Positions 16,403 through 64,000 of a stretch of 64,000 nt of DNA are shown one piece after another; within the stretch, counting starts at the first letter, position 1; each line of letters starts with the position of its first letter. The translations under genes and the position numbers were made by a program. The stretch is from a virus (taxonomy: Duplodnaviria; Caudoviricetes). Under the pieces are notes generated by a model. The model saw nothing but the letters and a program-made list of their open reading frames with translations. It was not told the origin of the DNA and searched no databases. The DNA lies in the IMG/VR virus record IMGVR_UViG_3300025016_000004; one strand, given 5' to 3'.

Positions 16403-16428
16403 AAAAAGAGGTCAATTGACCTCTTTTT
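16403..16428. terminator. Bidirectional intrinsic terminator between convergent genes
   Basis: Perfect 26-nt palindrome aaaaagaggtcaattgacctcttttt overlapping the polymerase stop codon. Confidence 0.85.
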
Positions 16429-19400: not shown

Positions 19401-20956
19401 ATCTCAATATTAGGATATAGAGCAGCAAAATCCAGTTTTGCGACGTCTTCAGCATATCCAACCTCTAGTAATCTAGATAATCCACCAGTAAATGTTTTTC
19501 TAGGTTTTAAATCAGGGATAGCCAATCTATTTTCATAAGACCATGCTAACATAATCAATTTCCAAATACCAGCTGTTCCCATTGTTGTTGAACGCATATA
19601 AGATGTAGGAATAATTTTAGATAATAAGAATGAAGCTTGATTATAAACACCATCCACTTGTTCAGTTTCCCAAAGGTCATCAAGTAAGTATTGTCTAACT
19701 ATATCAGAACCCTTAGCCTCCTTATAACCTTCTTTTAATGGGTTTTCTTCATTTATCTTATAATAAGTGCCATCAGTATTATTATAGGCGTATACGCTAT
19801 CCTTATCGTTCCAAGTTTCATATATTTTATTACCTTCAACATAAACTCGATTCTCTTTATTTAAACCTGAAAATTTGGTAATATATTTTAACCCCGCTTT
19901 TTTAATATTCGAGTTGATTGCTTTTGCTCTACGAACTGCATGATAAACATCAACAATATTATAACCCCACATTGTGGTTTGTTTATAATATTCACGCTCA
20001 CCACCTAATTTAAGTGATTTATCAACCCTTCTAATTTTACTATTACCATGTCTATCTAAAGTCTTAGCGATTAATTCAATATCTAACCCTAAAATATCAC
20101 ATCTAGTAAAAATAAAATGCCAGTCAAAGTTTTCTGAGTTATAACCAGCTATAACATCAGGTTTTAGTGTATTAATTACATCAAAAAATTTAAGAATTGA
20201 ATAAGCTTCATAATCCCTTAATTCTTGTTTGGTACCTTCTTGTGGAACTTCTATAATTTCTTCGTAACCTCTATTATCTCTAATACCAACTTGAAATATT
20301 TTATCATCCTTATACCTAATAGGTTCATTGGTACTATCAAATTCATATAATTTGGTTAAATCTTCACCAGTACCCATCCTCTCTTTAATATCTTCAATAT
20401 CTTCCTGAGATAATAATCGACCTTTTGGGTTTAATCCTGTTGTTTCTAAGTCAAATTGAAGTCTATGGACATCGTTATAATCATCCATCCCTTTAAACAA
20501 TCGTCTACCAGTGGCAATTAAATATTGTTCAACTGGGTTTATTGTTATAAAATAACTTTTGTGTGAATCACCATAAACATCAATACCACCATCTTTAAAA
20601 AAATTTAATAATTTTGTATAAGGGCCTTTAACTTTGGCAATGTATTTAAAACCATTCTTCATTCGCCTAGCTTCTTCTTGGTCAGGCATGGAAGTTTTTA
20701 GTTTTTTAATAGAAACACCATATTTTTTTGCAGAGGCGGCAATTAAATTTCTTTTACCACCAAACATTATTTTAGTAACTTCCTCTTTAAACCATAAAAA
20801 TGAAATTAATGAGTCTTTTGATATAAATTTACCTCTTTCAGGGTCATTAATTATCAATGAAACATCTGGGCTACCATATGGAATTTCTACACCTACAATA
20901 TATTTCTTTTGGTTTCTACCCTCTAAGAACCTAGCAATAATTTCTTCGTCAACCAT
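16412..20956 (-). CDS. polB: Family B DNA polymerase with one intein (about 1152 aa after splicing)
   Basis: ExoI FDLETTG, ExoII GYNSENFD, motif A LDFAALYP, motif B KILGNSFFG, motif C VGD|TDG split by the intein, and KNY. Confidence 0.95.
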   Translation of the reverse strand: MVDEEIIARFLEGRNQKKYIVGVEIPYGSPDVSLIINDPERGKFISKDSLISFLWFKEEVTKIMFGGKRNLIAASAKKYGVSIKKLKTSMPDQEEARRMKNGFKYIAKVKGPYTKLLNFFKDGGIDVYGDSHKSYFITINPVEQYLIATGRRLFKGMDDYNDVHRLQFDLETTGLNPKGRLLSQEDIEDIKERMGTGEDLTKLYEFDSTNEPIRYKDDKIFQVGIRDNRGYEEIIEVPQEGTKQELRDYEAYSILKFFDVINTLKPDVIAGYNSENFDWHFIFTRCDILGLDIELIAKTLDRHGNSKIRRVDKSLKLGGEREYYKQTTMWGYNIVDVYHAVRRAKAINSNIKKAGLKYITKFSGLNKENRVYVEGNKIYETWNDKDSVYAYNNTDGTYYKINEENPLKEGYKEAKGSDIVRQYLLDDLWETEQVDGVYNQASFLLSKIIPTSYMRSTTMGTAGIWKLIMLAWSYENRLAIPDLKPRKTFTGGLSRLLEVGYAEDVAKLDFAALYPNIEITHDVFPDTDITGVMKGMLIYIASTRDKFKNLMNHHKGELSKLKDFKKANGDKLPKEDFELLESQIEKESSLASMYDKKQLPIKILGNSFFGSLGAPNIFNWGDINCAEETTCRGRQYLRLMVKFFMDYDFRPLVGDSVTFNTPIYIKWKDNGAIDILPICDLYNPNSNSIDEEEIRDYETKPYEVLTVNGWKEINYVYKHETQKQIHRVSTKDRLVCVTEDHSLFQNGIQVKPSSLKRGDLIDVHQLPQHNTDTFPETRTDFYWLLGYFLGDGSAIYGSRKQYYKSRKTGETHINKGVRGEWKISSNNLENLEKLKSIIEENWAFWDVKPRIKDHRKSSGVYNLVVYKTDFSQRFCEDFYTSYREKKVPTFVLNTTLENKKAFMDGVCASDGYGNDMETVSDIGMKSQVAMSGIGYLLNCLGVQYKLKLRKDKENFISFKLRNSNRNNSEFTDKTIMQANEVWKNEEILNRDKENYVYDISTEDGTFIGGIGGVNLKNTDGFNFAIPKDVSKHTYIPKGTHRFTEKDKGKILVGLDAVVAKFNELFMIGRMGLDIDDICSSTINFSRKNYANFIGGKTKLVGNTIKSSKMPGYIEDFLDEGIKYLLNGDGESFIDLYNRTVDDIYNFRIPLVKIASKANVKDSISSYMTDMKTTTIAGNLKAKKAHMELLIANNIKANLGDTVYYVNTGTVKSHGDVKVVTNKETGERTINLQCKLIPTEQIENNPNLTTDEYNVPKYLDAFNKRIHPLLVCFKPEIREGILMDMVKNKKTKEMELTERKVFTKKECELHSGTAFKDGDQNTLAELMEMEDKEIQFWIRVNKIPNNLEELNMDWKQIQEDYHERERIRRIEGIKFEKSKTREIIKRLEYDEIQKMKKTTKLPKALENLAEFTVHDDENGKPNIYVKSKEWEIDLCCVTDILKYEPWAAQRQKFYQTLTLRKEKTFEFWLTHLWIEARKEGDDKKALKIKKELDLAGVELVLEDYKVALETEKEVN
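17906..18991 (-). mobile_element. Intein with LAGLIDADG endonuclease in PolB motif C (362 aa)
   Basis: Begins SVTFNTPIY and ends YVYDISTEDGTFIGGIGGVNLKN|T; LGYFLGDGS and FMDGVCASDG motifs; removing it restores VGDTDG. Confidence 0.92.
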
Positions 20957-21517: not shown

Positions 21518-21772
21518 TTATGTATTTAAAGATTGAATTAATACAATTGCTTGGTCAATTGTTTGGAAACTCCTATTTGGAACCAATACATGTTTATCAA
21601 ATATGATGATAGGGATTACAGGTTCACCAACGAAATCAAATAATTTAATGACATGTTCTCTATTGGAATCATCATCAATATTTATATTGGTGAACTCAAG
21701 GTTTAATTTGCTTAACTTTTCTTGTAAATCCTTACAATAAGGGCAATTATTACTTGTATATACTTTTATCAT
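21518..21772 (-). CDS. Glutaredoxin / NrdH-like redoxin
   Basis: IKVYTSNNCPYC active site and a VIP cis-Pro motif, 84 aa. Confidence 0.9.
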   Translation of the reverse strand: MIKVYTSNNCPYCKDLQEKLSKLNLEFTNINIDDDSNREHVIKLFDFVGEPVIPIIIFDKHVLVPNRSFQTIDQAIVLIQSLNT

Positions 21773-24678
21773 AACTCTAATCCGTTTTCTTCTAAATCAT
21801 TTAATAATCTGGATAATCTATCACTAGTTTTATCACCTCTATTTAATATTTTATCAATATTTTTTTGTTTATTCATCACAGAATACCACATCACAAAAGA
21901 TACTGTACCTCTAAATAATTGGTAATAAACTGAAACGTTATTTTTCTGCCCGATTCTGTAACAATTATGAACATTATAATTACCAACTACAAATGAGTGG
22001 TCATCTTCTACTGATAAATCATAAACCCTTTCCTCACCTCTTTTAGGTTTTGAAATTTTAATTGATTTAATCGGGTAAGTAATATAATCACCTACTTGAT
22101 TAATTCTTTTATTTTCAACTCTATTTAATGAATACTCAATTGAGTAATTATTAACATTTTTATTAGATAAAGTAACACTCCTACCTAAATTAGCGTTATA
22201 TCTAACCAATTGTGATATTAATTTTAAAGAAGCGGTAGTAGCTTGTTGAGTATTTTTACGTTGGTAACCATCACCATGATAATACCCATCTAATAAATGT
22301 TTTAATTGTTCATTATTTAAATAATCAACCCAATATGGTAATTGTTTAGAATATACATTTTCACCGAACCACATTTTAAATAAATTTGCCATTTCACTAG
22401 AATGTATGGTACAAGTTTTTGTATTATTTTTATCAACATAAGATGAATGTTTATCAATTTTAAAACCCCTTTTTATTATATCAATAATATATTCTGAAGC
22501 GTCATACATTTTAGGGTTAGTTATTTTTTGACATACATTAATTGTATCTGATTTATTATCAGAAATACTACACCAACCATCAGCAATGTAAAACCCAAAA
22601 GCGTATAATAATTCATTAGTTAATAAAACACTTTTAGGTAAAGTAACTAACCTACCATTGGTTTGTAAAAGATTGTGATTATTTTTAAAGTACTTACTTT
22701 TAAAACTTGGTATTTTTAATTCTTCTAATCTACTTATTGGTTGATGTTCACTTCTAATCGTTAAAAAATGATTCAAAATATTTAAATCTTTTGCTTCAAT
22801 CCAAATAAAATCATCTAATATTTTATCATATACATATAATTTATGGTCATGTGTAACTGATAAACTGTTATTATATCCAAAAGCATTTATATCATATCTT
22901 AATTTTTTACGTTCTAATTTAGAAGTTTTATCAATTACATTTTTAAATTTACCTTTATGTGTATAAACTTTATCACCAATTTCAATTTCTTGAATCATTT
23001 TATAACCATCGTCAGTCATAACCCATTGGTCACCAAATATACATCTATCTTCCGCTTGTTCATTATCCCCTGGCACCCAACTGAATGAATTAAAGATAAC
23101 CACAGTACCTTCAGTTAACGTAATACCAACACCCGCAGAAGCTATATTTCCAATAAATACCTTACATTTCTTATTGGTTTGGAATTTATCCACTGATTTT
23201 TGTTTTTCAGTTGAATTCATTCTACCATTATGTATAACGCATTGATTTCCGAAATGTTCAGCTAATTCTTCCAATTCATCAGTAAAAGTAGTAAAAATAA
23301 CGATTTTTTGACCTTGTTCTATGGCATCTTCAGCTAATTCGATTGTTTTTGGTATCACTTCCATAGCAATAAACTTTCTTAAAAGACCTAATTCAACCAA
23401 ATCTTTATTTAAACTAACTCGCTTACCTTCAGCCGCCTTTTTCTCTAAATATTCTTCCCAAAGGTTTTCATATTCAGCCCAACCACGTTTTGACATATCA
23501 TGATACATTGTGGTAATGGTTTTATCTGGCATATCCAAAACATCAGTTTTTAATCTTCTTAAAAGGTTGTTTTTAGTTCTAATTCCTAATTCATCTAAAT
23601 TAGAAGCACCATCAGTTATCCAAATCTGTCTTTTAACTCCGTTTATTACTTTATAAAATCTTTTAGCATCACAATATCTTTGAGCAAAGAACTTCCAATT
23701 ATCAGCCAATGGTGATTTAACCAATTTTAATAAATTGAAGAAATCCATAGGTCTATTAGCAATTGGTGTACCTGTTAATAACCACACTTTACCGATTTGA
23801 CCTTTAGAAACAATATCATTGATTAATTTGGTTCTTTGAGCTTTGGGGTTTTTAACCTTATGAGCTTCATCTAAAATCATCAAATCATAATCTTCATCAA
23901 TTATATTGGTGTAACAAGGGTCACCTTCTTTTTTAGGTTTACCTATACTGTGAAAGTTTTTAAGTATTTCATAATTTATAATGGTAAACCTACCAACGTG
24001 AGACCACTTACTACCATTAATAATCGTAGCTTTTTGTTTAAAACTTTCTATTTCTCGTTGCCAAGTAATTTTCATACTCACTGGACAAATTATTAAAACT
24101 TTTTTAATATCCATTTCTAATGCAGCGATAATTGATTGATAAGTTTTTCCTAGGCCCATCGAATCAGCTAAGATTGCACCATCTCTACACGCTAAGAACT
24201 CAATACCACTTTTTTGATGCTCATATGGGTGACGGCCATCAGTGTCTAATTCTTCATATTTACCCCAATCAATTTCAATTTCACATTCAGTAAAATATGG
24301 GTCATCCAAAACCATTGTTTTTGGTAACCAATACATTTTGGATTGTTTTTGTTTTTGTGTTAGCTTACCATAAACGTGATATGTCTTTTCTTGGTCAGCC
24401 AACATTGCTTGAATTAGCATACGCTCAGGTACAAAAGATAAACTGTATTTATCTTTTAATGATTCACCTAGAAATGGGTTAATCCTAATCACACGATTTA
24501 GGACTTGTGGTTCCACATCATGAAATTTATTTATATATTCAACTTGACCTTCAGTTAAAGTTATTTTATCATTTTTTCTTAACTTACTTTGCAAGTCTTT
24601 TAAGTATGGGTTAATCCCTGTATATGTTTGTAATAAGGTTACTGCACCTCTACTCTTTATGTCTTCTAAATTTATCAA
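21769..24678 (-). CDS. SNF2/SWI2-family helicase with one intein (about 609 aa after splicing)
   Basis: LADSMGLGKT, DEAH, LTGTPIAN, GVGITLT; motif VI QAEDR|CYRIGQ interrupted by the intein. Confidence 0.93.
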   Translation of the reverse strand: MINLEDIKSRGAVTLLQTYTGINPYLKDLQSKLRKNDKITLTEGQVEYINKFHDVEPQVLNRVIRINPFLGESLKDKYSLSFVPERMLIQAMLADQEKTYHVYGKLTQKQKQSKMYWLPKTMVLDDPYFTECEIEIDWGKYEELDTDGRHPYEHQKSGIEFLACRDGAILADSMGLGKTYQSIIAALEMDIKKVLIICPVSMKITWQREIESFKQKATIINGSKWSHVGRFTIINYEILKNFHSIGKPKKEGDPCYTNIIDEDYDLMILDEAHKVKNPKAQRTKLINDIVSKGQIGKVWLLTGTPIANRPMDFFNLLKLVKSPLADNWKFFAQRYCDAKRFYKVINGVKRQIWITDGASNLDELGIRTKNNLLRRLKTDVLDMPDKTITTMYHDMSKRGWAEYENLWEEYLEKKAAEGKRVSLNKDLVELGLLRKFIAMEVIPKTIELAEDAIEQGQKIVIFTTFTDELEELAEHFGNQCVIHNGRMNSTEKQKSVDKFQTNKKCKVFIGNIASAGVGITLTEGTVVIFNSFSWVPGDNEQAEDRCIFGDQWVMTDDGYKMIQEIEIGDKVYTHKGKFKNVIDKTSKLERKKLRYDINAFGYNNSLSVTHDHKLYVYDKILDDFIWIEAKDLNILNHFLTIRSEHQPISRLEELKIPSFKSKYFKNNHNLLQTNGRLVTLPKSVLLTNELLYAFGFYIADGWCSISDNKSDTINVCQKITNPKMYDASEYIIDIIKRGFKIDKHSSYVDKNNTKTCTIHSSEMANLFKMWFGENVYSKQLPYWVDYLNNEQLKHLLDGYYHGDGYQRKNTQQATTASLKLISQLVRYNANLGRSVTLSNKNVNNYSIEYSLNRVENKRINQVGDYITYPIKSIKISKPKRGEERVYDLSVEDDHSFVVGNYNVHNCYRIGQKNNVSVYYQLFRGTVSFVMWYSVMNKQKNIDKILNRGDKTSDRLSRLLNDLEENGLEL
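21964..23043 (-). mobile_element. Intein with LAGLIDADG endonuclease in SNF2 motif VI (360 aa)
   Basis: Begins CIFGDQWVMT and ends VYDLSVEDDHSFVVGNYNVHN|C; FGFYIADG and LDGYYHGDG motifs. Confidence 0.93.
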
Positions 24679-31008: not shown

Positions 31009-31043
31009 AAAAAACTCCTTAATGATTTATTAAGGAGTTTTTT
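31009..31043. terminator. Bidirectional intrinsic terminator
   Basis: aaaaaactccttaat-gattt-attaaggagtttttt 15-bp stem between convergent genes. Confidence 0.85.
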
Positions 31044-32670
31044 TATATGTAATAGTTCCACAATCATAAATTCTATTAAAACCCCTATTACTCATTATCT
31101 CACATTCAGTTAGATTTCCATCAAAACCTTCTTTAATTAATTTATCTTTTCTAAAACCAAATCTATGTTTACGATTTTTATTAATAACATACCAATAATT
31201 AGGTTTGTTGATTCTAATTTCTTCAAAACCTAATGTTTTATATAATCCACCATCACTCCATCTTCTATCTGCATAACTAACAATTTCTTTCGGCCTATTT
31301 TCACGTATGAAATGTTTTAAAAGTTTTGATGCACCACCAATAACATTTGTGTTTAATTTATTACAAAATCTAGACAATTCAAAATCATATTTTTGTTGTC
31401 CAATACCCAATCTAGGTTTATTAAATAACATAATACTAACCAATTCACCCTTATAACGCAATCCAATGTGATGCGTTGCATTTATACCACCTTGTAGGTG
31501 ATTATCATTAAGAAATTTAATACTCTCTGAGTTACTTATATTATCTATAATACACTCTCTACCATAAATTCTATTTTCAGTTAGATTTAATAGATTTTTT
31601 AATCTTGATTTAACAATTTCTGGTGTGTTAACCCATTCATCTTCAAAAATATGGATTAATTGAATACCTTGTTTATCACATAATTGGGTTTTATTTAAAT
31701 GATAATCTTTATTTAAAAATTCTTCAGAATGCCAATATAATCCATCAAACTCGATTGCTATTTTCTTAGATGGTATGTATATATCTAATTCTTTACCTAA
31801 TATTATTGACCTATTAGATGTAATTGTGTCAACACCTAACGAATTAATGAATTTATTAATTTCAATTTCTTGGTTGGATATAATTGAGACACATTTAGCA
31901 CAACCATGTCCACTTAAATGGTCATAAGGTAATTGCTCAAAATCACCATGCTTGGGGCATGTAATATTGTATTTATTAACCATATTAACATAATCACCAG
32001 ACTTGTAAGTGTATTTATTATTATGAACAAGATTAGCTTTTATTATGAATTCTGTGTTTGATAAAGTTAATTTAACTTTTGTAGATTCAATACCACAACT
32101 AGGGCAGCCTTTACCTCTAATATGATTATAAGGTTGTTGTTTAAATTCACCATGAATTGGACATATAATTGTAACTTTTGTTTTTGAATCTACATAATTA
32201 ACTTTGATGTAATCATATTTATTACCATGGGTATTTTCAGATTTAATTAAAAAATCAGTTAATGTTTCTTTTATATTTTTACGTTCTAAATGACATTTTT
32301 GACAACCCGATTTATAATGACCATTTGGTAATTGTTCAAAATCACCATGTTTGGGGCATGTTATTATTAATTTATTTTCAGAACCGTTATACACTGTTTT
32401 AGAATAATTATATTTATTACCATGAGTGTTTTTAGCTTTAATTAAAAACTCATCTAAATTAGTAACTTTACCACCACATAAAACACATTTTTTATAACCT
32501 CTTAAATGTTCAATAGGTGTTTGTTTAAAATAAATTAAATGTTCATTACATAGGATATCTATTGGTGTTTGACTATCTAGGTAATTCATTTTTGAATAAT
32601 CGAATTTATTTTTGAATTTATTTTTAACCTTTTCTAAAAATTTATCAACCTTTTTAATATTTTTTTTCAT
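31030..32670 (-). CDS. Hef-like homing endonuclease with Zn-ribbon repeats, inserted antisense between sheath and tube
   Basis: Repeated YDYSK..Y......I.CPKHG.F.Q.P..H..G.GC..C units, a nuclease motif ELDIYIP..KIAIEFDGLYWH, and C-terminal ELSRFC...GGASKL...SYADRRWS.G.LY..LGF. Confidence 0.75.
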   Translation of the reverse strand: MKKNIKKVDKFLEKVKNKFKNKFDYSKMNYLDSQTPIDILCNEHLIYFKQTPIEHLRGYKKCVLCGGKVTNLDEFLIKAKNTHGNKYNYSKTVYNGSENKLIITCPKHGDFEQLPNGHYKSGCQKCHLERKNIKETLTDFLIKSENTHGNKYDYIKVNYVDSKTKVTIICPIHGEFKQQPYNHIRGKGCPSCGIESTKVKLTLSNTEFIIKANLVHNNKYTYKSGDYVNMVNKYNITCPKHGDFEQLPYDHLSGHGCAKCVSIISNQEIEINKFINSLGVDTITSNRSIILGKELDIYIPSKKIAIEFDGLYWHSEEFLNKDYHLNKTQLCDKQGIQLIHIFEDEWVNTPEIVKSRLKNLLNLTENRIYGRECIIDNISNSESIKFLNDNHLQGGINATHHIGLRYKGELVSIMLFNKPRLGIGQQKYDFELSRFCNKLNTNVIGGASKLLKHFIRENRPKEIVSYADRRWSDGGLYKTLGFEEIRINKPNYWYVINKNRKHRFGFRKDKLIKEGFDGNLTECEIMSNRGFNRIYDCGTITYKKTP

Positions 32671-55228: not shown

Positions 55229-57679
55229 ATGAGTGACATCAACAAGCAAGATGGTTTTGGATTTTTAGGAATTCCTTACCAAAGAAGACTTATAACCCAA
55301 TTAATCACAGACCATAAATTTGCTACAAATATAATGGGGATAGTAGACCCAAACTACTTCACAGATTTATATTTGAGAATTATAGCATCTGAAATAAAAA
55401 ATGCGTTTGAGACTGATGAAGTTATACCAGATATTGAAAGCTTAGAATTTAGGTTAAATGGTAGAAAAGATAATGAAACTACTAAACTATATATCAAAGC
55501 ATCAATAGCTGAAATTAAAGATGGTAACCTGAACGATTCAGAATATGTTCAGGATATGGCCATGAAATTTTGTAAACAACAAGAATTAAAGAAATCAGTT
55601 CATGAAATTCAAGAAATAATAGATAAAGGTGATTTAGATTCATATGATGAATGTGAAGAAATATTAAAAAGAGCGTTAGAAGTCGGAAGTGATAAAGATT
55701 CTGGAATTGATGTTTTTTTTAATATTGAGGCAGTTCTAGAGGATGATTTTAGAAAACCAATACCTACAGGTATTGCTGGTTTAGATGATAAAATGGGTGG
55801 TGGTTTATCAAAAGGTGAATTGGGTGTTATATTAGCACCGTTTGGTGTTGGTAAAGCACAACCATTACATTCTAAAATATTAACACCTAATGGTTGGACT
55901 ACTATGGGTGAGATACAAGTTGGTGATGAAGTTATAAGTAGGGATGGTAAAGCGACTAAAGTCACTGGAGTGTTTCCACAAGGCGTTAGACCAATTTATG
56001 AGGTTAGATTTAATGATAATACTAAAACTTTATGTGATGCTGAACATTTATGGTCAGTTAATACAATCAATCAACGAAATAGAAAAACTAAAAAAAATGG
56101 TGTGATGGTTAAATTAGAACCTGATAATTCATTTAAAACTTTAAAAACTATTGATATGGTTGATAAAGTTAGGGTTTGGGGTAATAAGCGTTTAAATTAT
56201 AAAATACCAAATATCTTACCCGTAAATTTTAATAAAAATGAATTAATTATTAACCCATATTTATTAGGTGTTATATTAGGTGATGGATGTATAACTGAAC
56301 ATAATCAACCCCATATTACAACTAAAGATGTTGAATTAATAGATGAAATTGAAAAATATCATAATAATATTAATATTACTGAGCAAACACGAATGTTTGA
56401 AGTTTACAAAAATGGGAAATTTGAAAATGTAGAAAGAACCTTAACAAAAATTTCTTTATTAGGTATTAAAGATGATTTAAGTAGTTTAAAATTATATGGT
56501 TGTAATTCAGAAACTAAATTTATCCCACATAACTATCTATATTCTTCAGTTGAAGATAGAGTTTCGTTATTACAAGGATTAGTAGATACTGATGGTTATA
56601 TTGGTAACAATAGAATTGAGATTTGTACCGTATCAAAAATGATGTCGGAACAAATCAAAGAATTAGTATTGTCATTAGGTGGTACTTGTAATATAGGTGT
56701 AAAAATTGGTAGTTATTTGAAAGAGGGGGTTAAAATTAGATGTAAAAAAGCATATCGAGTTTATTTTAGTTTACCAACACAAATAAAATTTAATCCATGT
56801 AGACTTGAAAGGAAGTTGAATAATTTAAGTAAAAGGTCTAAATATGCTAATAATAAATTTATTACTAGTATTGAATATTCACATGAGGAAGAAGCTCAAT
56901 GTATTATGGTTGATAATCCAGAACATTTATATATAACTGATGATTATATAGTAACACATAACACAACCATGGTCACCAAAATAGCCAACGAAGCTTTTAA
57001 TCATGGATATAATGTTCTTCAAATATTTTTTGAAGATATTCCTAAAGTGATTCAAAGAAAACATTTATCATGTTGGACTGGGATAGCTCAAAACGATTTA
57101 CCATTAAAAGCAAACAGACCCATCATTGATGAAGTCATGAAAGAAAAAAATGATGGTAAAGGGTATTTAGAATTGAAAAAATTTCCTAGTGATGGAACAA
57201 CAATTCCTATGATTAAAAATTATATTAGAAAACTAGCAGCCGCTGGTAGAAAACCTGATGTAATTTTAATTGATTACATTGATTGTGTATCATCAACCAA
57301 ACATTACGATAAGGGATATGAGGCTGAAGGGCCAATTATGAGACAATTCGAATCATTATTGAGCGAATTTGATTTGGTTGGATGGACTGCAATTCAAGGT
57401 AATCGATGTGTTTCATTAGATACTATTATTGAAGATTCTAAACGTGGTAAAATTGAAATTAGAGATGTTAAGTTAGGGGATGAAATTTTAACTCATAAGG
57501 GTTACAAAAAAGTTACCCATATATTTCCTATTGCTAAGCAACCAGTTTATAAAATAAAATTAAAATCTGGTAAAACCATTAAAGTATCTAAAAAACATAA
57601 GTTCCCAACAAAAGATGGTGAAATGTTATCAATTGAAGATGGTTTAAAAGTTGGAAACATACTTTTAGGTAAAAAATAA
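55229..57679 (+). CDS. dnaB: DnaB/gp41-like replicative helicase, N-terminal half (contiguous intein plus split-intein IntN)
   Basis: PTG...LD....GG...GELGVILAP.GVGK|T Walker A, LIDYID Walker B; ends QGNR|C-IntN-stop. Confidence 0.93.
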   Translation: MSDINKQDGFGFLGIPYQRRLITQLITDHKFATNIMGIVDPNYFTDLYLRIIASEIKNAFETDEVIPDIESLEFRLNGRKDNETTKLYIKASIAEIKDGNLNDSEYVQDMAMKFCKQQELKKSVHEIQEIIDKGDLDSYDECEEILKRALEVGSDKDSGIDVFFNIEAVLEDDFRKPIPTGIAGLDDKMGGGLSKGELGVILAPFGVGKAQPLHSKILTPNGWTTMGEIQVGDEVISRDGKATKVTGVFPQGVRPIYEVRFNDNTKTLCDAEHLWSVNTINQRNRKTKKNGVMVKLEPDNSFKTLKTIDMVDKVRVWGNKRLNYKIPNILPVNFNKNELIINPYLLGVILGDGCITEHNQPHITTKDVELIDEIEKYHNNINITEQTRMFEVYKNGKFENVERTLTKISLLGIKDDLSSLKLYGCNSETKFIPHNYLYSSVEDRVSLLQGLVDTDGYIGNNRIEICTVSKMMSEQIKELVLSLGGTCNIGVKIGSYLKEGVKIRCKKAYRVYFSLPTQIKFNPCRLERKLNNLSKRSKYANNKFITSIEYSHEEEAQCIMVDNPEHLYITDDYIVTHNTTMVTKIANEAFNHGYNVLQIFFEDIPKVIQRKHLSCWTGIAQNDLPLKANRPIIDEVMKEKNDGKGYLELKKFPSDGTTIPMIKNYIRKLAAAGRKPDVILIDYIDCVSSTKHYDKGYEAEGPIMRQFESLLSEFDLVGWTAIQGNRCVSLDTIIEDSKRGKIEIRDVKLGDEILTHKGYKKVTHIFPIAKQPVYKIKLKSGKTIKVSKKHKFPTKDGEMLSIEDGLKVGNILLGKK
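55856..56962 (+). mobile_element. Class 3-type intein (Ala1, WCT triplet) with LAGLIDADG endonuclease in the helicase P-loop (369 aa)
   Basis: GK|AQPLHSKILTPNGW...DAEHLW...EAQCIMV...IVTHN|T; LGVILGDG and LQGLVDTDG motifs. Confidence 0.9.
57407..57676 (+). mobile_element. Split intein N-fragment of dnaB (90 aa)
   Basis: CVSLDTII...IEIRDVKLGDEI...VSKKHKFPT; blocks A and B only, then a stop. Confidence 0.92.
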
Positions 57680-57746
57680 TAATAATCTTTTTTGTATTGC
57701 ACTTAAACTTTTACATTATCGGTGATATTTATATTAAAATATTATC

Positions 57747-58889
57747 ATGATTAAAATTGACGTAGAAAATGTAATTAATAGAAAAACCATAAAACCCCTT
57801 TATCTAAAAGGGGTTTTAACTCAAAGACATAAAAATGAAATAAATAATATTTGTGATGTATATAATAGTGTTACTATAAAAAATAGAATTAAAAATATAC
57901 ACGATTTTATAAAATATGATGTTGACGGTACAATCCCTTGGGTTAAAAGGTTGGAAATTATACAGAAAGAATTGAATAATGATATTGCTAGTAAGTATGC
58001 CTTAGAAATAAGATATGGTAAGTGTAATGTAGATAAAAAGAGGTTTGAATTGGGGGTTAAGTTTTCTCATACTTTGGAAAAGTATATTGAAAAATATGGT
58101 AAAATAATCGGTAATGAAAAGTATGATGAATATTTAAGAAAATCTAAAACACCTTGGGGTTTAAAAGGTTGTGTGGATAGATATGGTGAAATAGAAGGTA
58201 AAAAAAAATGGGTGGAAAGGTTAAATAAAAAAATAAACACTCAAAATGAAAGAAAAAAAATAAAACCATATAGGAATGGTAGGACATTGAATGAATATCA
58301 AAATAAATATGGTGTAAAACTTGGTTACTTTAAGTGGAAAAAAAGAAATGAAAAGCAGAGTTATAGATTCTCAAAAAAATATTATATAAATACTTATGGT
58401 AGTGAAAAAGGTAATATTAAATGGGTTGAGTATAAAAAAAGTATGGATAAAACTTCCTTAAAAAGTTTTATCAATAGGTATGGAGAAAAAGATGGGATTA
58501 ATAAATATGAATCTTATTTAAGTAAAATTAATGATAGTGGTGTTTTTTATAGTAAAAGTTCACAAAAGTTATTTTGGTTAATTTATAATCAATTAAGTGA
58601 CGATAAGAAAAAACTTTGTCGTTTTGCAAAATTAAATGGTGAAGAATATTTCATAGTAAATAAATTTGGTTTTAACAATATTTTAGTAGATTTTAAATGT
58701 GAGAATAAAATAATCGAATTTGATGGAGATTATTGGCATTTAAATAAAAAACAAATTGAAATTGATAAATTGAGGGATGAGTTTTTAACTTCTAAGGGTT
58801 ATCAGATTTTAAGGGTTAGAGATAGTGAATTTGAGGTTAATAAAGAAAAAGTAATTAAAGAATGTATAAAATTTATAAAAAATGAATAA
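57747..58889 (+). CDS. Free-standing Vsr/DUF559-like endonuclease between the dnaB halves
   Basis: At least five KYGxxxGxxK(W/Y) repeats; C-terminal VDF...KIIEFDGDYWH...D..RD..L..KGY.ILRV. Confidence 0.8.
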   Translation: MIKIDVENVINRKTIKPLYLKGVLTQRHKNEINNICDVYNSVTIKNRIKNIHDFIKYDVDGTIPWVKRLEIIQKELNNDIASKYALEIRYGKCNVDKKRFELGVKFSHTLEKYIEKYGKIIGNEKYDEYLRKSKTPWGLKGCVDRYGEIEGKKKWVERLNKKINTQNERKKIKPYRNGRTLNEYQNKYGVKLGYFKWKKRNEKQSYRFSKKYYINTYGSEKGNIKWVEYKKSMDKTSLKSFINRYGEKDGINKYESYLSKINDSGVFYSKSSQKLFWLIYNQLSDDKKKLCRFAKLNGEEYFIVNKFGFNNILVDFKCENKIIEFDGDYWHLNKKQIEIDKLRDEFLTSKGYQILRVRDSEFEVNKEKVIKECIKFIKNE

Positions 58890-59397
58890 AAATGAAATTA
58901 TGAATCTAGAGGGGTTTACTTTAGATGAAATAGAGAGTATTGACTTAATAGGTGAAGAAGATACCATAGATATAACTGTGGATGATACCCATATGTTTTT
59001 CGCTAATGATATATATACACATAATTCATCGATTAATGCTGAAAATGTTGATTCAAGTATGATTGGTGGGTCAATCAAAAAAGGTCAAATTGGGCATTTT
59101 ATTGTTTCAATAGCTAAAGATTTAGACCAAAAAGAGGGTGGTAGAGCTAATATGGCGATATTAAAATCTAGGTTTGGTGTAGATGGAATTATTTTTACTG
59201 ATGTAGTATTTGATAACTCCAAAATACAAATAACTATTGATGAAGGTAAAGTATTAAAAGCTTCAGAAATGGATGACTATAAGAATGAACAAGTTAAAGG
59301 AAGAATGAAAGATTTGTTCGAACAATATGAAAAAACTAAAGAAGTTTTAATCACTTCTGAAGTTGATAAAAAAGAAAAAACAGAGGATGTTAACTAA
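58882..59397 (+). CDS. dnaB: DnaB helicase C-terminal half preceded by split-intein IntC (48 aa, 58882-59025)
   Basis: ...EDTIDITVDDTHMFFANDIYTHN|SSINAE...GGSIKKGQIGHFIVSI...ILKSRFG (helicase motifs H3/H4 and the arginine finger). Confidence 0.92.
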   Translation: MNKNEIMNLEGFTLDEIESIDLIGEEDTIDITVDDTHMFFANDIYTHNSSINAENVDSSMIGGSIKKGQIGHFIVSIAKDLDQKEGGRANMAILKSRFGVDGIIFTDVVFDNSKIQITIDEGKVLKASEMDDYKNEQVKGRMKDLFEQYEKTKEVLITSEVDKKEKTEDVN

Positions 59398-62300
59398 AAA
59401 AGAAAAAAGAGTTAAATATTTTAGCGGTGATGATTTAGCCGCAACGGTTTGGAATGATAAATACAAACTAGGGGATGAAGGTTCGGAAATTGAAGAATCT
59501 ACGCCAGCTGATATGCACTTAAGAATGGCAAAAGAATTTGCTAGAGTTGATGGTAAATATCAAGTAAAAGAATTAAAAAAATTATTGGATAATCCAGAAA
59601 TTAAACTTAGTGATTATGGATTTAATCGTAAAGATTTAACAGTTAAAGAAATATACGCTTTATTGGAGAATTTTGGTAAAATAGTTCCACAAGGTTCTGT
59701 TATGTCACAGTTAGGTAATGACGAACAAATTGGTTCATTATCTAATTGTTTTGTTATAGGACAACCTGAAGATTCTTATGGTGGAATTATGCTTAAAGAC
59801 CAAGAATTGGTTCAATTGATGAAACGTAGAGGTGGTGTAGGTATCGATATATCGTCATTAAGACCTAGTGAAACTCCAACATCAAATGCGGCCAAGAGTT
59901 CAACTGGTGCAGTTTCTTTTATGGAAAGATTTAGTAACTCAACTAGAGAAGTTGCTCAAAATGGTCGTAGAGGTGCACTTATGCTTTCAATTGATGTAAG
60001 ACATCCAGATGTAGCTGATTTCGTTAAGATTAAGAATGATAGAACCAAAGTTACTGGTGCTAACATATCAGTTTCATTAAGAGATGATTTCATGAAAGCG
60101 GTTAAAGCTGATGGGGATTATATTTTAAGATATCCAATTAATGAAGAAATACACCCTGAATGGGATGGATTGAATGAATATGAATATAATAAATTATATA
60201 CGCTAGAAGATGCTAATAACGTTAAAACTTGGGTTAAAAAAATTAAAGCTAAAGAATTATATGACCTTATAATTGAGAATGCTTGGGACAACGCTGAACC
60301 TGGTCAGATTTTCATTGATAGACACTGGGATTATAGCCCTGATGGTGTTTATCCAGAATATAGAGGTATAACTACAAACCCTTCATTGCGTCATGATACA
60401 TTAATACAAACTGATTTAGGGTTATACCCTATAAAGGAATTAGCTGAAAGTGATGGGTTAACAATCGTTAAAAATATTAAAAATGAATGGCAAGTTGGTA
60501 AAGTGTTTTTATCTGGTAAAGGTAAAGAATTGTATAAAATTACTTTTACTAATGGATATGAAGTATATTGCACTGCTGAGCATAAATGGCCGATATTGAA
60601 TTCACAGAAAAATATTTTTAATAAAGTGAATGGTTCGGTTTTGAAAAAAAGGACTGATGAGTTAATGTTTGGACACCCAAAACTTGGTGGTGATAGAACA
60701 CATTTAGAGTTTAACCCTAATTATGAGGGTAATGTGAGTTGTAAATTAACAAAAAATGATGGATTTTTAAGTGGTTATTGGTTAGGTGATGGACACACTT
60801 CGATAACAACTGAGGGAGTTAAACAATACGGATTTATAGTATCTGATGATGAATTATTAGATTGTGGCGATAAATTACTTAATATAATCGGTGAAAATAA
60901 AATAAAAAACACTAACAATAATTTTAATAGAGACCATGAAAGTGAAGCATACTCACTATATATTAGCGAGATTGGATTCAGAGAGTATTGTGATAGATTA
61001 AAATTAGGGTATGATAAAATTAATGGGATACCCGAAACAGTTTTCAAAAGTGGTAATAAATTTATAAAAGGGTTTATAGATGGATTGTTTTCTGCTGATG
61101 GCTCTGTGTGGGCTAATGAAGATTTAGTACATAGTAGAGTTACATTAACAAGTAGTAGATTTAACATAGTAAAAGACGTTCAAAAATTATTAAATTTATT
61201 TGGAATTTCTAGTAATATACAAGAGCGTAAAGATAAGTTAAATGATAAAACGTTTACTGGGTATAATTTAGTTATTAGTGGGGTACACAGTAGGAAATTT
61301 GCAACGTGTTTTACTTTAACTTCTAAAGATAAACAAGATAAATTAGATACTATATTAAATTATGAAAACACATATAAAGATAATAGAGAGTATTTAATTA
61401 TTAAAAATGTTGAACCAACTGGTATTTTTGAGGATGTGTATGATATAACAGTATTTGATGATACACACACTTTTAAAGGAGAGTTTGGTACGACTGGTAA
61501 TTGTGGTGAAATATTTATGCAACCATATGATGCTTGTAGATTAATGGCATTGAATTTTTATTCATTTGTAGATAACCCATTTACTAAAAACGCTAGAGTC
61601 AATTATCAAGCTGTATATGAAGCGGCCTACGAGCAACAAAGATTAGCTGATGATTTAGTTGATTTAGAATTAGAAAAAATTGATAGAATTATCGCTAAGG
61701 TTAAAAATGACCCTGAAAGCGAAATGACAAAAGCTGTTGAATTACAACTTTGGGAAAATATCCGTAAAGTTGCAGCTTCTGGTAGAAGAACTGGATGTGG
61801 TTTTACTGGGTTAGGTGATATGATTGCGGCCACTGGTGTTGATTATGATTCTGAAGAAGGGTTAGATATCATTGATAAGGTTATGAGGGCTAAAATGAGC
61901 GGTGAGTTAGACTGTACTATCGATTTAGCAGCTCTTAGAGGTCATTTCGATGGATATAACAACGAATTAGAGTATTCTGATGGTGTAGGCACCAATGAGT
62001 TCTTTAAGATGCTTAAAACTGAGTTTAAAGAGCAATATGATAGAATGATTATTTATGGAAGAAGAAACGTATCATTCTCAACGGTTGCACCTACAGGTTG
62101 CTTAGTTAAAGAAACTAAACTAAAAACAAATCGAGGTATCATTGAATTGAAAGATTTATTTTTAATTAATGGTATTGATATAGATAAATTAAAAAATGAA
62201 AAAAATATTTGGTTTGATATTGAAGAAGAAATAATGGTTTATGATATTAATGGTGGTGAACATAAAATAAATAAATTATATTGGAATGGTTATAGTAAAA

Positions 62301-62443
62301 CTAAAAAAATTAAATTGGGTAATAATGAAAGTGTTGAATCTAGTACCGAACATAAGTGGTTGGTTAGGGTTTCTGAAACTGAGGCTAAATGGGTTAGAGC
62401 TGACGAATTGAAAATTTCTGATAAAATTATTAAAATAAATTAA
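59363..62443 (+). CDS. nrdJ: Class II (B12-dependent) ribonucleotide reductase, N-terminal half (contiguous intein plus split-intein IntN); start may be ATG 59387
   Basis: SNCFV, RRGGVG.D.S.LRP, RRGALM, TTNP|CGEI, C.L, RR.G.G..G; ends STVAPTG|C-IntN-stop. Confidence 0.92.
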   Translation: MIKKKKQRMLTKKEKRVKYFSGDDLAATVWNDKYKLGDEGSEIEESTPADMHLRMAKEFARVDGKYQVKELKKLLDNPEIKLSDYGFNRKDLTVKEIYALLENFGKIVPQGSVMSQLGNDEQIGSLSNCFVIGQPEDSYGGIMLKDQELVQLMKRRGGVGIDISSLRPSETPTSNAAKSSTGAVSFMERFSNSTREVAQNGRRGALMLSIDVRHPDVADFVKIKNDRTKVTGANISVSLRDDFMKAVKADGDYILRYPINEEIHPEWDGLNEYEYNKLYTLEDANNVKTWVKKIKAKELYDLIIENAWDNAEPGQIFIDRHWDYSPDGVYPEYRGITTNPSLRHDTLIQTDLGLYPIKELAESDGLTIVKNIKNEWQVGKVFLSGKGKELYKITFTNGYEVYCTAEHKWPILNSQKNIFNKVNGSVLKKRTDELMFGHPKLGGDRTHLEFNPNYEGNVSCKLTKNDGFLSGYWLGDGHTSITTEGVKQYGFIVSDDELLDCGDKLLNIIGENKIKNTNNNFNRDHESEAYSLYISEIGFREYCDRLKLGYDKINGIPETVFKSGNKFIKGFIDGLFSADGSVWANEDLVHSRVTLTSSRFNIVKDVQKLLNLFGISSNIQERKDKLNDKTFTGYNLVISGVHSRKFATCFTLTSKDKQDKLDTILNYENTYKDNREYLIIKNVEPTGIFEDVYDITVFDDTHTFKGEFGTTGNCGEIFMQPYDACRLMALNFYSFVDNPFTKNARVNYQAVYEAAYEQQRLADDLVDLELEKIDRIIAKVKNDPESEMTKAVELQLWENIRKVAASGRRTGCGFTGLGDMIAATGVDYDSEEGLDIIDKVMRAKMSGELDCTIDLAALRGHFDGYNNELEYSDGVGTNEFFKMLKTEFKEQYDRMIIYGRRNVSFSTVAPTGCLVKETKLKTNRGIIELKDLFLINGIDIDKLKNEKNIWFDIEEEIMVYDINGGEHKINKLYWNGYSKTKKIKLGNNESVESSTEHKWLVRVSETEAKWVRADELKISDKIIKIN
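60383..61501 (+). mobile_element. Intein with LAGLIDADG endonuclease directly before the RNR catalytic Cys (373 aa)
   Basis: TTNP|SLRHDTLIQ...CTAEHKW...VYDITVFDDTHTFKGEFGTTGN|CGEI; GYWLGDG and IDGLFSADG motifs. Confidence 0.92.
62099..62440 (+). mobile_element. Split intein N-fragment of nrdJ (114 aa)
   Basis: CLVKETKLKTNRG...ESSTEHKWLV...WVRADELKISDKI, then a stop; no block F or G. Confidence 0.9.
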
Positions 62444-62447
62444 CTAA

Positions 62448-62483
62448 AACGCCCTTTGTTTTATACTTATTACAAAGGGCGTT
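62448..62483 (+). promoter_or_regulatory. Strong hairpin abutting the endonuclease start codon
   Basis: aacgccctttgt / acaaagggcgtt perfect 12-bp stem with a 12-nt loop; no T-tail; ATG at 62488. Confidence 0.7.
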
Positions 62484-62487
62484 AGTT

Positions 62488-63600
62488 ATGAAAATAAAAT
62501 ATGTAGAATATTATAATGAATTGGTTAGTAAATATGGTGAAGAAGATGGGTTAAAAAAATATAAATCATTTTTGAGGTCATCAACATTAGAAACTTATAT
62601 TATTAAATTTGGTGAAAAGCGTGGTACAGATAAATTCAATAATAAGAAAAAGTCAGGAATATCACTAGAAAAAATGATTGAGAAATATGGTGAAAAAGAC
62701 GGTACTAATAGATATAATAATTGGTTATCTAAAATTAGGCAAGATTTACCAAATTTTATTAAGAGATATGGTGAAAAAGACGGATTAAAAAAATATAATG
62801 AATTTAAAGATAATTGTATTGTTAAAACAAAAATAAAAGAAAACCCCAACTCAAAATATAATAATAGGTTACATAATACTAGATATGAATTTTTTTTAGA
62901 AGAAAATAATGGTGATATTAATAAAGCTAAAAAACAATTAATTAAAAGACAAAGAACGAGTGATTTAAAATCTTTCATTAAAAAACACGGCTTAATAGAG
63001 GGTGAAAAAAAATATAAATTAGCTAATAAAAAAAAATCTAATAATATTAAGAATTTTATTAGATTATATGGTGATGTTGAAGGTAATAGACGATATTTTA
63101 ATTATATTAAAAAACTAAAATATATTCATAGTGAAAAATATTATTTAGATAAGTATGGTGAAATAGAAGGTAAAGTTAGGTGGGTAGAATTGATTAATAA
63201 AAAAACTAATAATTTTATTAATGGTCAATCTAAAATTGGTGATGAATTTTGTAATAATTTATTTAATGAAATAAAAAAAGATGTTGATGATAAATATTAT
63301 TTTTCTGAAAATGAATATAAATTCTTTATTCATGATGAAGAATATAAAATAATTCAGCCAGATTTTTTAATTAAAGAAAGTAAAATAGTTGTTGAATTTT
63401 ATGGTGATTACTGGCATAGAAATCCAGAAATATATAATGATGATATTTCAAAAATAATTAGGGAAAAAGATGAAGAAAGGATAAAAAAAATAGAATCTTT
63501 AGGGTATATCATATATATTATATGGGAAAAGGAATATCGTTTAAATAAAATTGGAGTAATAAAAAATTTAAGTAATAAAATAATTAATAAAATAAAATAA
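62488..63600 (+). CDS. Free-standing Vsr/DUF559-like endonuclease between the nrdJ halves
   Basis: About seven (K/R)YGExxGxx(K/R)Y repeats; C-terminal QPDF...KIVVEFYGDYWH...D.ER...IESLGY.IYIIWE. Confidence 0.8.
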   Translation: MKIKYVEYYNELVSKYGEEDGLKKYKSFLRSSTLETYIIKFGEKRGTDKFNNKKKSGISLEKMIEKYGEKDGTNRYNNWLSKIRQDLPNFIKRYGEKDGLKKYNEFKDNCIVKTKIKENPNSKYNNRLHNTRYEFFLEENNGDINKAKKQLIKRQRTSDLKSFIKKHGLIEGEKKYKLANKKKSNNIKNFIRLYGDVEGNRRYFNYIKKLKYIHSEKYYLDKYGEIEGKVRWVELINKKTNNFINGQSKIGDEFCNNLFNEIKKDVDDKYYFSENEYKFFIHDEEYKIIQPDFLIKESKIVVEFYGDYWHRNPEIYNDDISKIIREKDEERIKKIESLGYIIYIIWEKEYRLNKIGVIKNLSNKIINKIK

Positions 63601-64000
63601 TGAAGGAAAATAACGAAATAATTGATATTAGTAATGTTAATTACAGTGAATGTGAAATATTAGATATTGTAGATGGATATGATTATACTATGGATTTTGA
63701 GGTGGGTGATACACATTACTATACATTAGAAAATGGTTTAGTGAGTCATAATAGTGTGAGTATTCTTACTCAAACTACTTCGGGGTTAGAGCCAGTATTT
63801 TCCGTATTCCCTTATTTAAGACGTAAAAAGTTAAACCCTAACGATAAAAACGCTAGAGTAGATTTTACTGATGATAATGGTGACCAATGGCAAGAGTTTT
63901 CAGTAACTCATAAACCGCTTATGGATTATATCAAAATCAATAAATTGGATGAAGCAATCACTGAATTAAATGATAAAATGAATAAAACCAAAGCTGAAGA
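63600..64000 (+). CDS. nrdJ: NrdJ C-terminal half preceded by split-intein IntC (51 aa, 63600-63752); partial and not in the ORF track
   Basis: My translation is MKENNEIIDISNVNYSECEILDIVDGYDYTMDFEVGDTHYYTLENGLVSHN|SVSILTQTTSGLEPVF...; splicing restores APTG-SVS..TTSGLEPVF. Confidence 0.92.
   Translation, partial: MKENNEIIDISNVNYSECEILDIVDGYDYTMDFEVGDTHYYTLENGLVSHNSVSILTQTTSGLEPVFSVFPYLRRKKLNPNDKNARVDFTDDNGDQWQEFSVTHKPLMDYIKINKLDEAITELNDKMNKTKAE

Follow-up and report, generated by a model that had tools for sequence, protein, structure and literature searches.

A window of 64,000 nucleotides—the whole stretch of DNA analysed here, record IMGVR_UViG_3300025016_000004 of IMG/VR (Duplodnaviria, Caudoviricetes)—carries between positions 55229 and 59397 a replicative helicase gene in two pieces with a split intein and an endonuclease gene between them, i.e. 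a 'fractured gene' of a large tailed phage from aquifer metagenomes. By its sequence, the intein is supported as a naturally split class 1 intein of the gp41-8 type in a DnaB-like (T4 gp41-type) helicase, and the rejoining of the fractured helicase by split-intein trans-splicing appears to be the most likely function of the arrangement, with a probability of about 0.85. It should be pointed out here that, although the allele is new, both the large family to which it belongs and the arrangement in which it is found have been described before.

The fractured helicase gene and its split intein

The locus is made up of three open reading frames (ORFs), all on the plus strand within 55229–59397, which encode 816 amino acids (aa; 55229–57679), 380 aa (57747–58889) and 171 aa (58882–59397). 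Their parts, with arrows marking the splice junctions, are the following:

55229–55855, plus strand: first part of the helicase N-extein, up to the P-loop APFGVGK (from the ORF, matches in the PDB and colinearity with uninterrupted homologues)
55856–56962, plus strand: LAGLIDADG intein of 369 aa, contiguous, within the P-loop (AQPL...VTHN↓T) and bearing a class 3 signature (from Pfam and the boundaries of homologues)
56963–57406, plus strand: middle part of the helicase extein, with the C-terminal AIQGNR (88% protein identity to the empty-site allele L001)
57407–57679, plus strand: N-terminal intein half (IntN; 90 aa, Cys1, block B SKKH, net charge +10) and its TAA stop
57680–57746, plus strand: spacer with a weak hairpin, the 3′ arm of which reaches the endonuclease start codon
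57747–58889, plus strand: free-standing homing endonuclease gene, 380 aa (N-terminal YG..G..KY/W modules, C-terminal Vsr-like/EDxHD nuclease domain)
58882–59025, plus strand: C-terminal intein half (IntC; 48 aa, net charge −12, C-terminal THN), its ATG overlapping the endonuclease stop by 8 nucleotides
59026–59397, plus strand: helicase C-extein, 123 aa, with Ser+1 first (SSINAE)

As translated, the coding stretch of IntN (57407–57676) begins with CVSLDT, is closed by the TAA at 57677–57679 and contains 21 basic residues (19 Lys and 2 Arg) against 11 acidic ones (6 Asp and 5 Glu); that of IntC, in which SSINAE follows the THN end, contains 1 Lys against 13 acidic residues (7 Asp and 6 Glu). 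An earlier note, made from the letters of this DNA, had given the same lengths and residue counts, the TAA, the THN↓S end and a distance of 1.2 kb between the halves, all of which the translation bears out; the start CLSLDT that it quoted is, however, the sequence of gp41-8 itself. The approximately 1.2 kb from IntN to IntC is occupied by the 380-aa ORF, the 3′ end of which is joined to the IntC start, on the same strand, by the 8-nucleotide overlap ATGAATAA. The start of IntC at 58882 is backed by a relative (P0004) having Ile where the alternative Met7 stands. An interpretation of 57407–59025 as one contiguous intein with a nested endonuclease is ruled out by the in-frame TAA, the 67-nucleotide spacer and the differing reading frames.

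The insertion is precise, as seen from the empty-site contig L001 (86–88% DNA identity to the window), which aligns with 57105–57409 and then runs straight on to 59029–60381; it is thus without 57410–59028, i.e. the interval assigned to the element in the earlier note give or take three ambiguous bases. This contig encodes AIQGNRSSINAE uninterrupted (AIQGNR↓SSINAE), its protein P0006 reading ...MVGWTAIQGNRSSINAENVDSSMIGG... without a break. Removal of both inteins in silico leaves a helicase of 480 aa, whose residues 1–471 align, at 82% identity and without a single gap, with an uninterrupted helicase encoded on a 197-kb viral contig; the joined QGNR-SSINAE and the product of about 480 aa, both proposed from the letters alone, therefore agree with the empty site and with the gap-free alignment. 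The N-terminal region of the helicase matches chains of the 'DnaB-like replicative helicase' in the PDB (8DTP, 8DUE and 8G0Z; 432–475 aa; E about 1e-5), which we take to be gp41 of phage T4. The junction reads GNR↓SSI here and LNR↓SAY in native gp41-8 (Pinto et al. 2020, PMC7090010) and, on these three extein residues per side, it appears to fit the same insertion point. The codons flanking the insertion (57385–57406 and 59026–59050) differ synonymously from L001:322–368, with CGA in the occupied versus AGA in the empty allele for Arg, TCA TCG versus AGT TCT for Ser-Ser, and AAT versus AAC for Asn; these changes could reflect co-conversion, or the occupied site could be shielded from the endonuclease by them.

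Since the source is metagenomic, and since the contigs of two DNA runs gave short, partly fitting pieces and no joint, the layout might be taken for an artefact of assembly, for example a chimera or a variant that was collapsed. However, the locus is also found, with 99.8% identity over 10 kb, in an ENA contig that comes from a different, separate assembly, the index lists the IntC protein for 57 contigs (of up to 314,960 bp), 22 aquifer-metagenome runs contain every sampled word of the stretch, and the same architecture recurs in independent viral contigs at 50–80% identity, all of which makes such an artefact extremely improbable.

Concerning the identity of the two halves, the best match of IntN is the gp41-1 intein (PDB 6QAZ; E 2.2e-14, residues 11–87 on 13–88), with the DnaE and DnaB inteins lower, and IntC matches residues 92–128 of the same entry (E 3e-5), with the DnaB, NrdJ-1 and DnaX inteins lower. 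The Cake and Scone designed repeat proteins at the top of the PDB list of IntC are repeat artefacts lacking any one significant stretch, and were left out of account. The Pfam family Intein_splicing matches both IntN and IntC with scores under the curated cut-off, as expected for half-domains. To our knowledge, no structure of gp41-8 exists. In the BLASTP comparison with its sequence, taken from the supplement of Pinto et al. (2020; PMC7090010), 47 of 86 residues of IntN (55%; E 7e-30) and 20 of 35 residues of IntC (57%; E 2e-12) are identical; gp41-1 is more distant, with approximately 43% identity over IntN residues 11–87, as counted on the 6QAZ alignment. The resemblance to gp41-8, which the earlier note had pointed out, holds in this alignment, the intein blocks being present.

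The catalytic residues are in place. The position-1 nucleophile of IntN is Cys, found there in all 17 aligned IntN sequences; its block B, S61-K-K-H64, aligns with SEEH of gp41-1 and SANH of gp41-8, the His being invariant; and IntC ends in ...DTIDITVDDTHMFFANDIYTHN↓S, i.e. with a penultimate His, the terminal Asn and Ser+1. The break between the halves falls between the blocks matching residues 13–88 and 92–128 of 6QAZ, which corresponds to the endonuclease-insertion loop, and the halves belong to separate polypeptides, the first closed by the TAA and the second opened by its own ATG.

The precursor that carries IntN also holds the contiguous intein in the P-loop, in which Pfam recognizes LAGLIDADG_3, Hom_end and Hom_end_hint, and whose closest PDB entries are the DnaB inteins 6RIX, 6RIY and 6BS8. 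Its boundaries are set by homologues reading GVGK↓TTM, the context here being GVGK↓AQPL...VTHN↓TTM. Residue 1 is Ala, Trp stands two residues past the block B His (AEHLW), block F has Cys (AQCIMV) at the usual place of Asp, and Thr precedes the terminal HN; these features—Ala1, Trp after the block B His, the block F Cys and Thr before HN—make up the class 3 'WCT' signature. This intein must cis-splice from the precursor shared with IntN.

Distribution, selection and the case for trans-splicing

A scan of viral contigs yielded 498 stretches encoding relatives, of which 80 retained loci were classified. At the helicase site, IntN, a homologous endonuclease and IntC are present in 14 of the 80; five further loci have IntN and IntC parted by a stop with a short spacer or by an ATGA overlap, without the endonuclease and with both halves intact; and the site is empty in about 60. 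The occurrence of the empty, the split with endonuclease and the split without endonuclease states at one and the same site is what a homing element would be expected to show. In public metagenomes, at least 374 clusters (at 90% identity) of 150–190-aa ORFs share the IntC plus C-extein design; the earlier claim of a new split intein is therefore right with regard to the allele but not to the kind, the layout having been described in 2009 as well. All but one of the 120 listed related ORFs begin with an acidic IntC ending in HN and followed by Ser, and the core DEIESIELIGEEDTIDITV.DTHMF.ANDIYTHN is nearly invariant among the listed IntC ORFs. All 16 natural IntN sequences aligned, plus gp41-8, have a net positive charge, and Cys1 and the block B His are retained in all of them. 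With every surveyed IntN basic and every IntC acidic, the charge polarity is a trait of the family. A blastn search of the locus against cultured phages gave no close relative, just short fragments of intein or helicase at 69–79% identity.

The ratios of nonsynonymous to synonymous substitution rates (dN/dS) are 0.15–0.21 for IntN, 0.04–0.17 for IntC, 0.11–0.44 for the exteins and 0.32 for the endonuclease (against two relatives), the values of the intein halves being similar to those of the exteins and all of them being rough with dS near saturation (0.5–2.5). The complete catalytic set, consisting of Cys1, the S-K-K-H of block B, the penultimate His, the terminal Asn and Ser+1, together with purifying selection on both halves, makes trans-splicing likely.

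The halves are also predicted to associate. The predicted IntN–IntC complex scores 0.89 compared with 0.00 for the best of three controls, the mark used for this score being reached by 51 of 78 solved complexes and by 2 of 108 mismatched pairs; the runs show at least 97% contact agreement and a predicted local distance difference test (pLDDT) value of the partner of at least 80. The contacts of lowest error connect IntN residues 48–53 (YKIKLK, a basic strand) and 81–86 with IntC residues 14–22 (LDEIESIDL, an acidic strand). It should be noted that split-intein complexes of the gp41 family have already been solved, and the predicted complex therefore indicates likeness rather than proving binding.

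Based on the above results, the following course of events may be proposed. A mobile element, composed of the split intein and the free-standing Vsr-like/EDxHD endonuclease gene, occupies the conserved QGNR↓S motif of the helicase, so that the helicase is made as two polypeptides: one with the N-extein and the contiguous class 3 intein, ending in the basic 90-aa IntN, and the other with the acidic 48-aa IntC followed by the 123-aa C-extein. The YKIKLK strand of IntN and the LDEIESID strand of IntC would bind each other and form a single Hint domain; Cys1 would then give a thioester, Ser+1 would attack it and the terminal Asn would cyclise, releasing the 480-aa helicase with the native AIQGNR-SSINAE. 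The endonuclease, in turn, would cut the intein-less alleles of co-infecting relatives and thereby spread the whole cassette.

The helicase fragments might instead act as a non-covalent complex, the intein halves serving as an association module that forms no peptide bond. Phage split gene products assembling without splicing are known, such as the Aeh1 NrdA split by an endonuclease gene (cited in Dassa et al. 2009, PMC2677866; PMC3045599), and the predicted tight heterodimer of IntN and IntC would hold the fragments together without any chemistry. Such a module, however, would not need Cys1, the block B His, the penultimate His, the terminal Asn and Ser+1, which are kept family-wide; the close relatives gp41-1 and gp41-8 splice fast in vitro as well as in vivo; and an unspliced 138-aa Hint domain would be left sitting inside the conserved QGNR↓S motif. 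An association without splicing would thus seem highly improbable.

As far as trans-splicing itself is concerned, the sequence and the comparisons establish the anatomy of the locus, the precise insertion, the membership in the family, purifying selection and a confidently predicted heterodimer. Several points nevertheless weigh against the reading: splicing by this particular allele, like the activity of the endonuclease and the timing of expression, is what we infer; block B of IntN has Ser in place of the Thr of the canonical TxxH, a Ser that is common to gp41-1 and gp41-8, both splicing-competent; the selection estimates suffer from the saturation mentioned above; if the class 3 intein were not removed, the helicase would be dead irrespective of the split intein; and a second intact helicase may lie outside the 64-kb window, one complete related phage record having two helicase paralogues (57% and 47% identical to the query). 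The last point bears on the possibility that the fractured copy is a decaying relic, with the helicase function supplied by another gene of the phage or by the host. The dN/dS values argue against it, those of the exteins and of the intein halves being well below 1; moreover, all three ORFs are open, the endonuclease-less alleles retain both intein halves intact, and the gene lies in a replication module with a single-stranded DNA-binding protein (SSB), a UvsX-like recombinase, an exonuclease, the helicase and a ribonucleotide reductase. Four of the five related viral records searched contain one copy of the helicase each, and of these four one is rated 100% complete and another has the split form. 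A relic is thus very unlikely, and the rejoining of the helicase by trans-splicing remains the preferred reading.

Endonuclease gene and neighbouring loci

The endonuclease encoded between the intein halves matches, with its residues 294–377, the Pfam families MTES_1575 (E 3.5e-10) and DUF559 (E 2.6e-9), and gives a weak match (E 0.0011 over 53 residues) to PDB 3R3P, the nuclease domain of I-Bth0305I. The alignment with 3R3P and Pfam spans the core ..VDF..IEFDGDYWH..ID.., the comparison with the published motif (E, D, H and D) being made at the level of this core. The N-terminal two thirds of the protein, a part of which is covered by PHROG 22677, are composed of at least five copies of repeated YG..G..KY/W modules; a module has about 25–35 aa with the core (K/R)YG.x.G.xK(Y/W), and such arrays are found in both Vsr-like endonucleases of the window (57747–58600 and 62488–63250), the same modules being present in the paralogue at 62488–63600 in the reductase locus. 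A Pfam search of these N-terminal modules gave no DNA-binding family and no NUMOD; the arrays are presumably the target-recognition region. The endonuclease gene is missing from both the empty-site and the endonuclease-less alleles.

The spacer hairpin before the endonuclease start at the helicase locus (−9.8 kcal/mol, z −0.88) is not significant alone. Clear hairpins enclosing the endonuclease start codon are found at the same place in four relatives (L004, L008, L009 and L013), and the hairpin of the window seems credible only through this comparison. Just 3′ of the IntN stop (57680–57700), a conserved motif TTTTTTGTAT(T/C)GC is shared by the window and the endonuclease-bearing relatives L003, L004, L008 and L009, and it may be a control element travelling with the endonuclease cassette. 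Another hairpin, of 12 bp (AAAACCCCTTT...AAAGGGGTTTT), lies at 57790–57818 within the first 25 codons of the endonuclease ORF; it is terminator-like on both strands, and a similar one occurs at the same place in the relative L003. A promoter scan found 57 sigma-70-like sites versus a shuffled expectation of 64, i.e. no excess. Contigs of two RNA-seq libraries (cold-spring and aquifer metatranscriptome) are identical to 58052–58217 and 59233–59400, which is a weak hint of transcription, DNA carry-over being possible.

A second fractured gene, that of the large subunit of ribonucleotide reductase (59363–64000, plus strand), directly follows the helicase gene downstream. Its inserted elements are:

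60383–61501, plus strand: contiguous 373-aa LAGLIDADG intein of the reductase (TTNP↓SLRH...TTGN↓CGEI)
62099–62440, plus strand: reductase IntN, 114 aa (APTG↓CLVKE...)
62488–63600, plus strand: Vsr-like endonuclease gene of the reductase locus
63600–63752, plus strand: reductase IntC, 51 aa (...VSHN↓SVSIL)

The empty-site contig L001 is also without 60382–61501 and 62106–63751, i.e. the two insertions of the reductase (its contiguous intein and its split-intein cassette). A strong hairpin at 62441–62488 (plus strand; −23.2 kcal/mol, z −7.2, with none of 200 shuffles as good) is located between the stop of the reductase IntN and the start of the endonuclease, and its 3′ arm ACAAAGGGCGTTAG directly precedes the endonuclease ATG and would hide a ribosome-binding site. 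It is a hairpin of the kind reported before the endonuclease starts of fractured-gene loci (Dassa et al. 2009, PMC2677866). The reductase IntC is acidic (1 K/R versus 12 D/E), and the reductase IntN is nearly neutral (21 versus 20). It is conceivable, although we would put the odds somewhat against it, that the helicase allele is a fast-splicing pair without cross-reaction with gp41-8 or gp41-1, and that the phage carries, with the reductase pair in the same operon, naturally co-evolved, mutually orthogonal split inteins whose specificity is set by something beyond bulk charge.

Inteins are also contained in the family B DNA polymerase (1514 aa; 16412–20956, minus strand) and, with a LAGLIDADG domain, in a SNF2-type helicase (969 aa; 21769–24678, minus strand), which brings the inteins of the polymerase, the SNF2 protein, the helicase and the reductase to six in 64 kb. 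A 546-aa ORF (31030–32670, minus strand) has weak zinc-ribbon/DUF723/CapR-like and MTES_1575 (Vsr-like) matches, most of them not exceeding the curated Pfam cut-offs, and is probably another free-standing homing endonuclease. The genes of the window are those of a tailed phage, with a tail sheath, a tail lysozyme, tail fibre-like proteins, the family B DNA polymerase, the SNF2 helicase, SSB, the UvsX-like protein and the exonuclease.

Relation to known systems and significance

The gp41-8 intein from the Global Ocean Sampling (GOS) metagenome shares with the window intein a phage gp41/DnaB-like helicase as its host (for gp41-8 described as 'phage-like gp41'; Dassa et al. 2009, PMC2677866), the NR↓S junction, the THN↓S end, the S-x-x-H of block B, an IntN of about 89–90 aa and an IntC of 45–48 aa, the basic and acidic character of the respective halves and a free-standing endonuclease gene between them. 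The two differ in about 45% of residues and in that the host precursor in the window also holds a contiguous class 3 intein; furthermore, gp41-8 has measured fast kinetics, whereas the window allele is known from its sequence. The Npu and Ssp DnaE inteins are likewise natural class 1 split inteins broken at the endonuclease-insertion loop, with halves associating electrostatically, but their charge polarity is opposite and their halves are encoded at distant loci. In DnaE split inteins, the +1 residue is Cys, not Ser. The gp41-1 intein (PDB 6QAZ and 6RIZ) is similar with regard to the Hint fold family, the split position and the N-positive/C-negative polarity; it has, however, another integration point, in the gp41 of cyanophages, and its endonuclease is of another type than in the gp41-8/9 group (Dassa et al. 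2009, PMC2677866).

The polarity reversed in comparison with DnaE, put forward in the earlier note as part of what was new, is real, but its novelty does not stand: for gp41-1 and gp41-8, a positive N-intein and a negative C-intein, with the reverse in the cyanobacterial DnaE halves, were already published (Dassa et al. 2009, PMC2677866), and the same contrast to Npu DnaE was drawn in the preprint on the gp41-1 structure, where charge swapping was tested (bioRxiv 10.1101/546465). In the former study, ocean metagenomes yielded 26 'fractured gene' loci, each with an enzyme gene interrupted by a split intein and with the gene of a free-standing endonuclease, of the GIY-YIG or the Vsr-like type, placed between the intein halves; hairpins before the endonuclease start, endonuclease 3′ ends overlapping the downstream start and one endonuclease-less allele were reported as well (Dassa et al. 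2009, PMC2677866). The present locus is like them in the endonuclease/start overlap, the hairpin (weak in the window at the helicase locus) before the endonuclease start, the endonuclease-less alleles and the phage setting, with no difference in kind, and unlike them in having two fractured genes—those of the helicase and of the ribonucleotide reductase—back to back, each with a contiguous intein. The endonuclease resembles I-Bth0305I, the prototype of the Vsr-like 'EDxHD' homing endonucleases (PMC3239194; 3R3P), in its C-terminal Vsr-like domain with ..IEFDGDYWH.. and its N-terminal repeated, putatively DNA-binding region; unlike I-Bth0305I, it is free-standing between intein halves and not in a group I intron, and its YG..G..KY/W repeats are without a NUMOD match.

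The locus thus adds no new principle, both its architecture and its charge polarity having been in the literature since 2009. In protein ligation, wide use is made of fast natural split inteins of the gp41 class, and new orthogonal pairs are useful there; the allele described here together with its hundreds of relatives represents a pool of natural gp41-8 variants for that purpose. For the biology of the element, the locus illustrates the homing cycle cleanly, each of the cycle's three states being met at one site in related phages.

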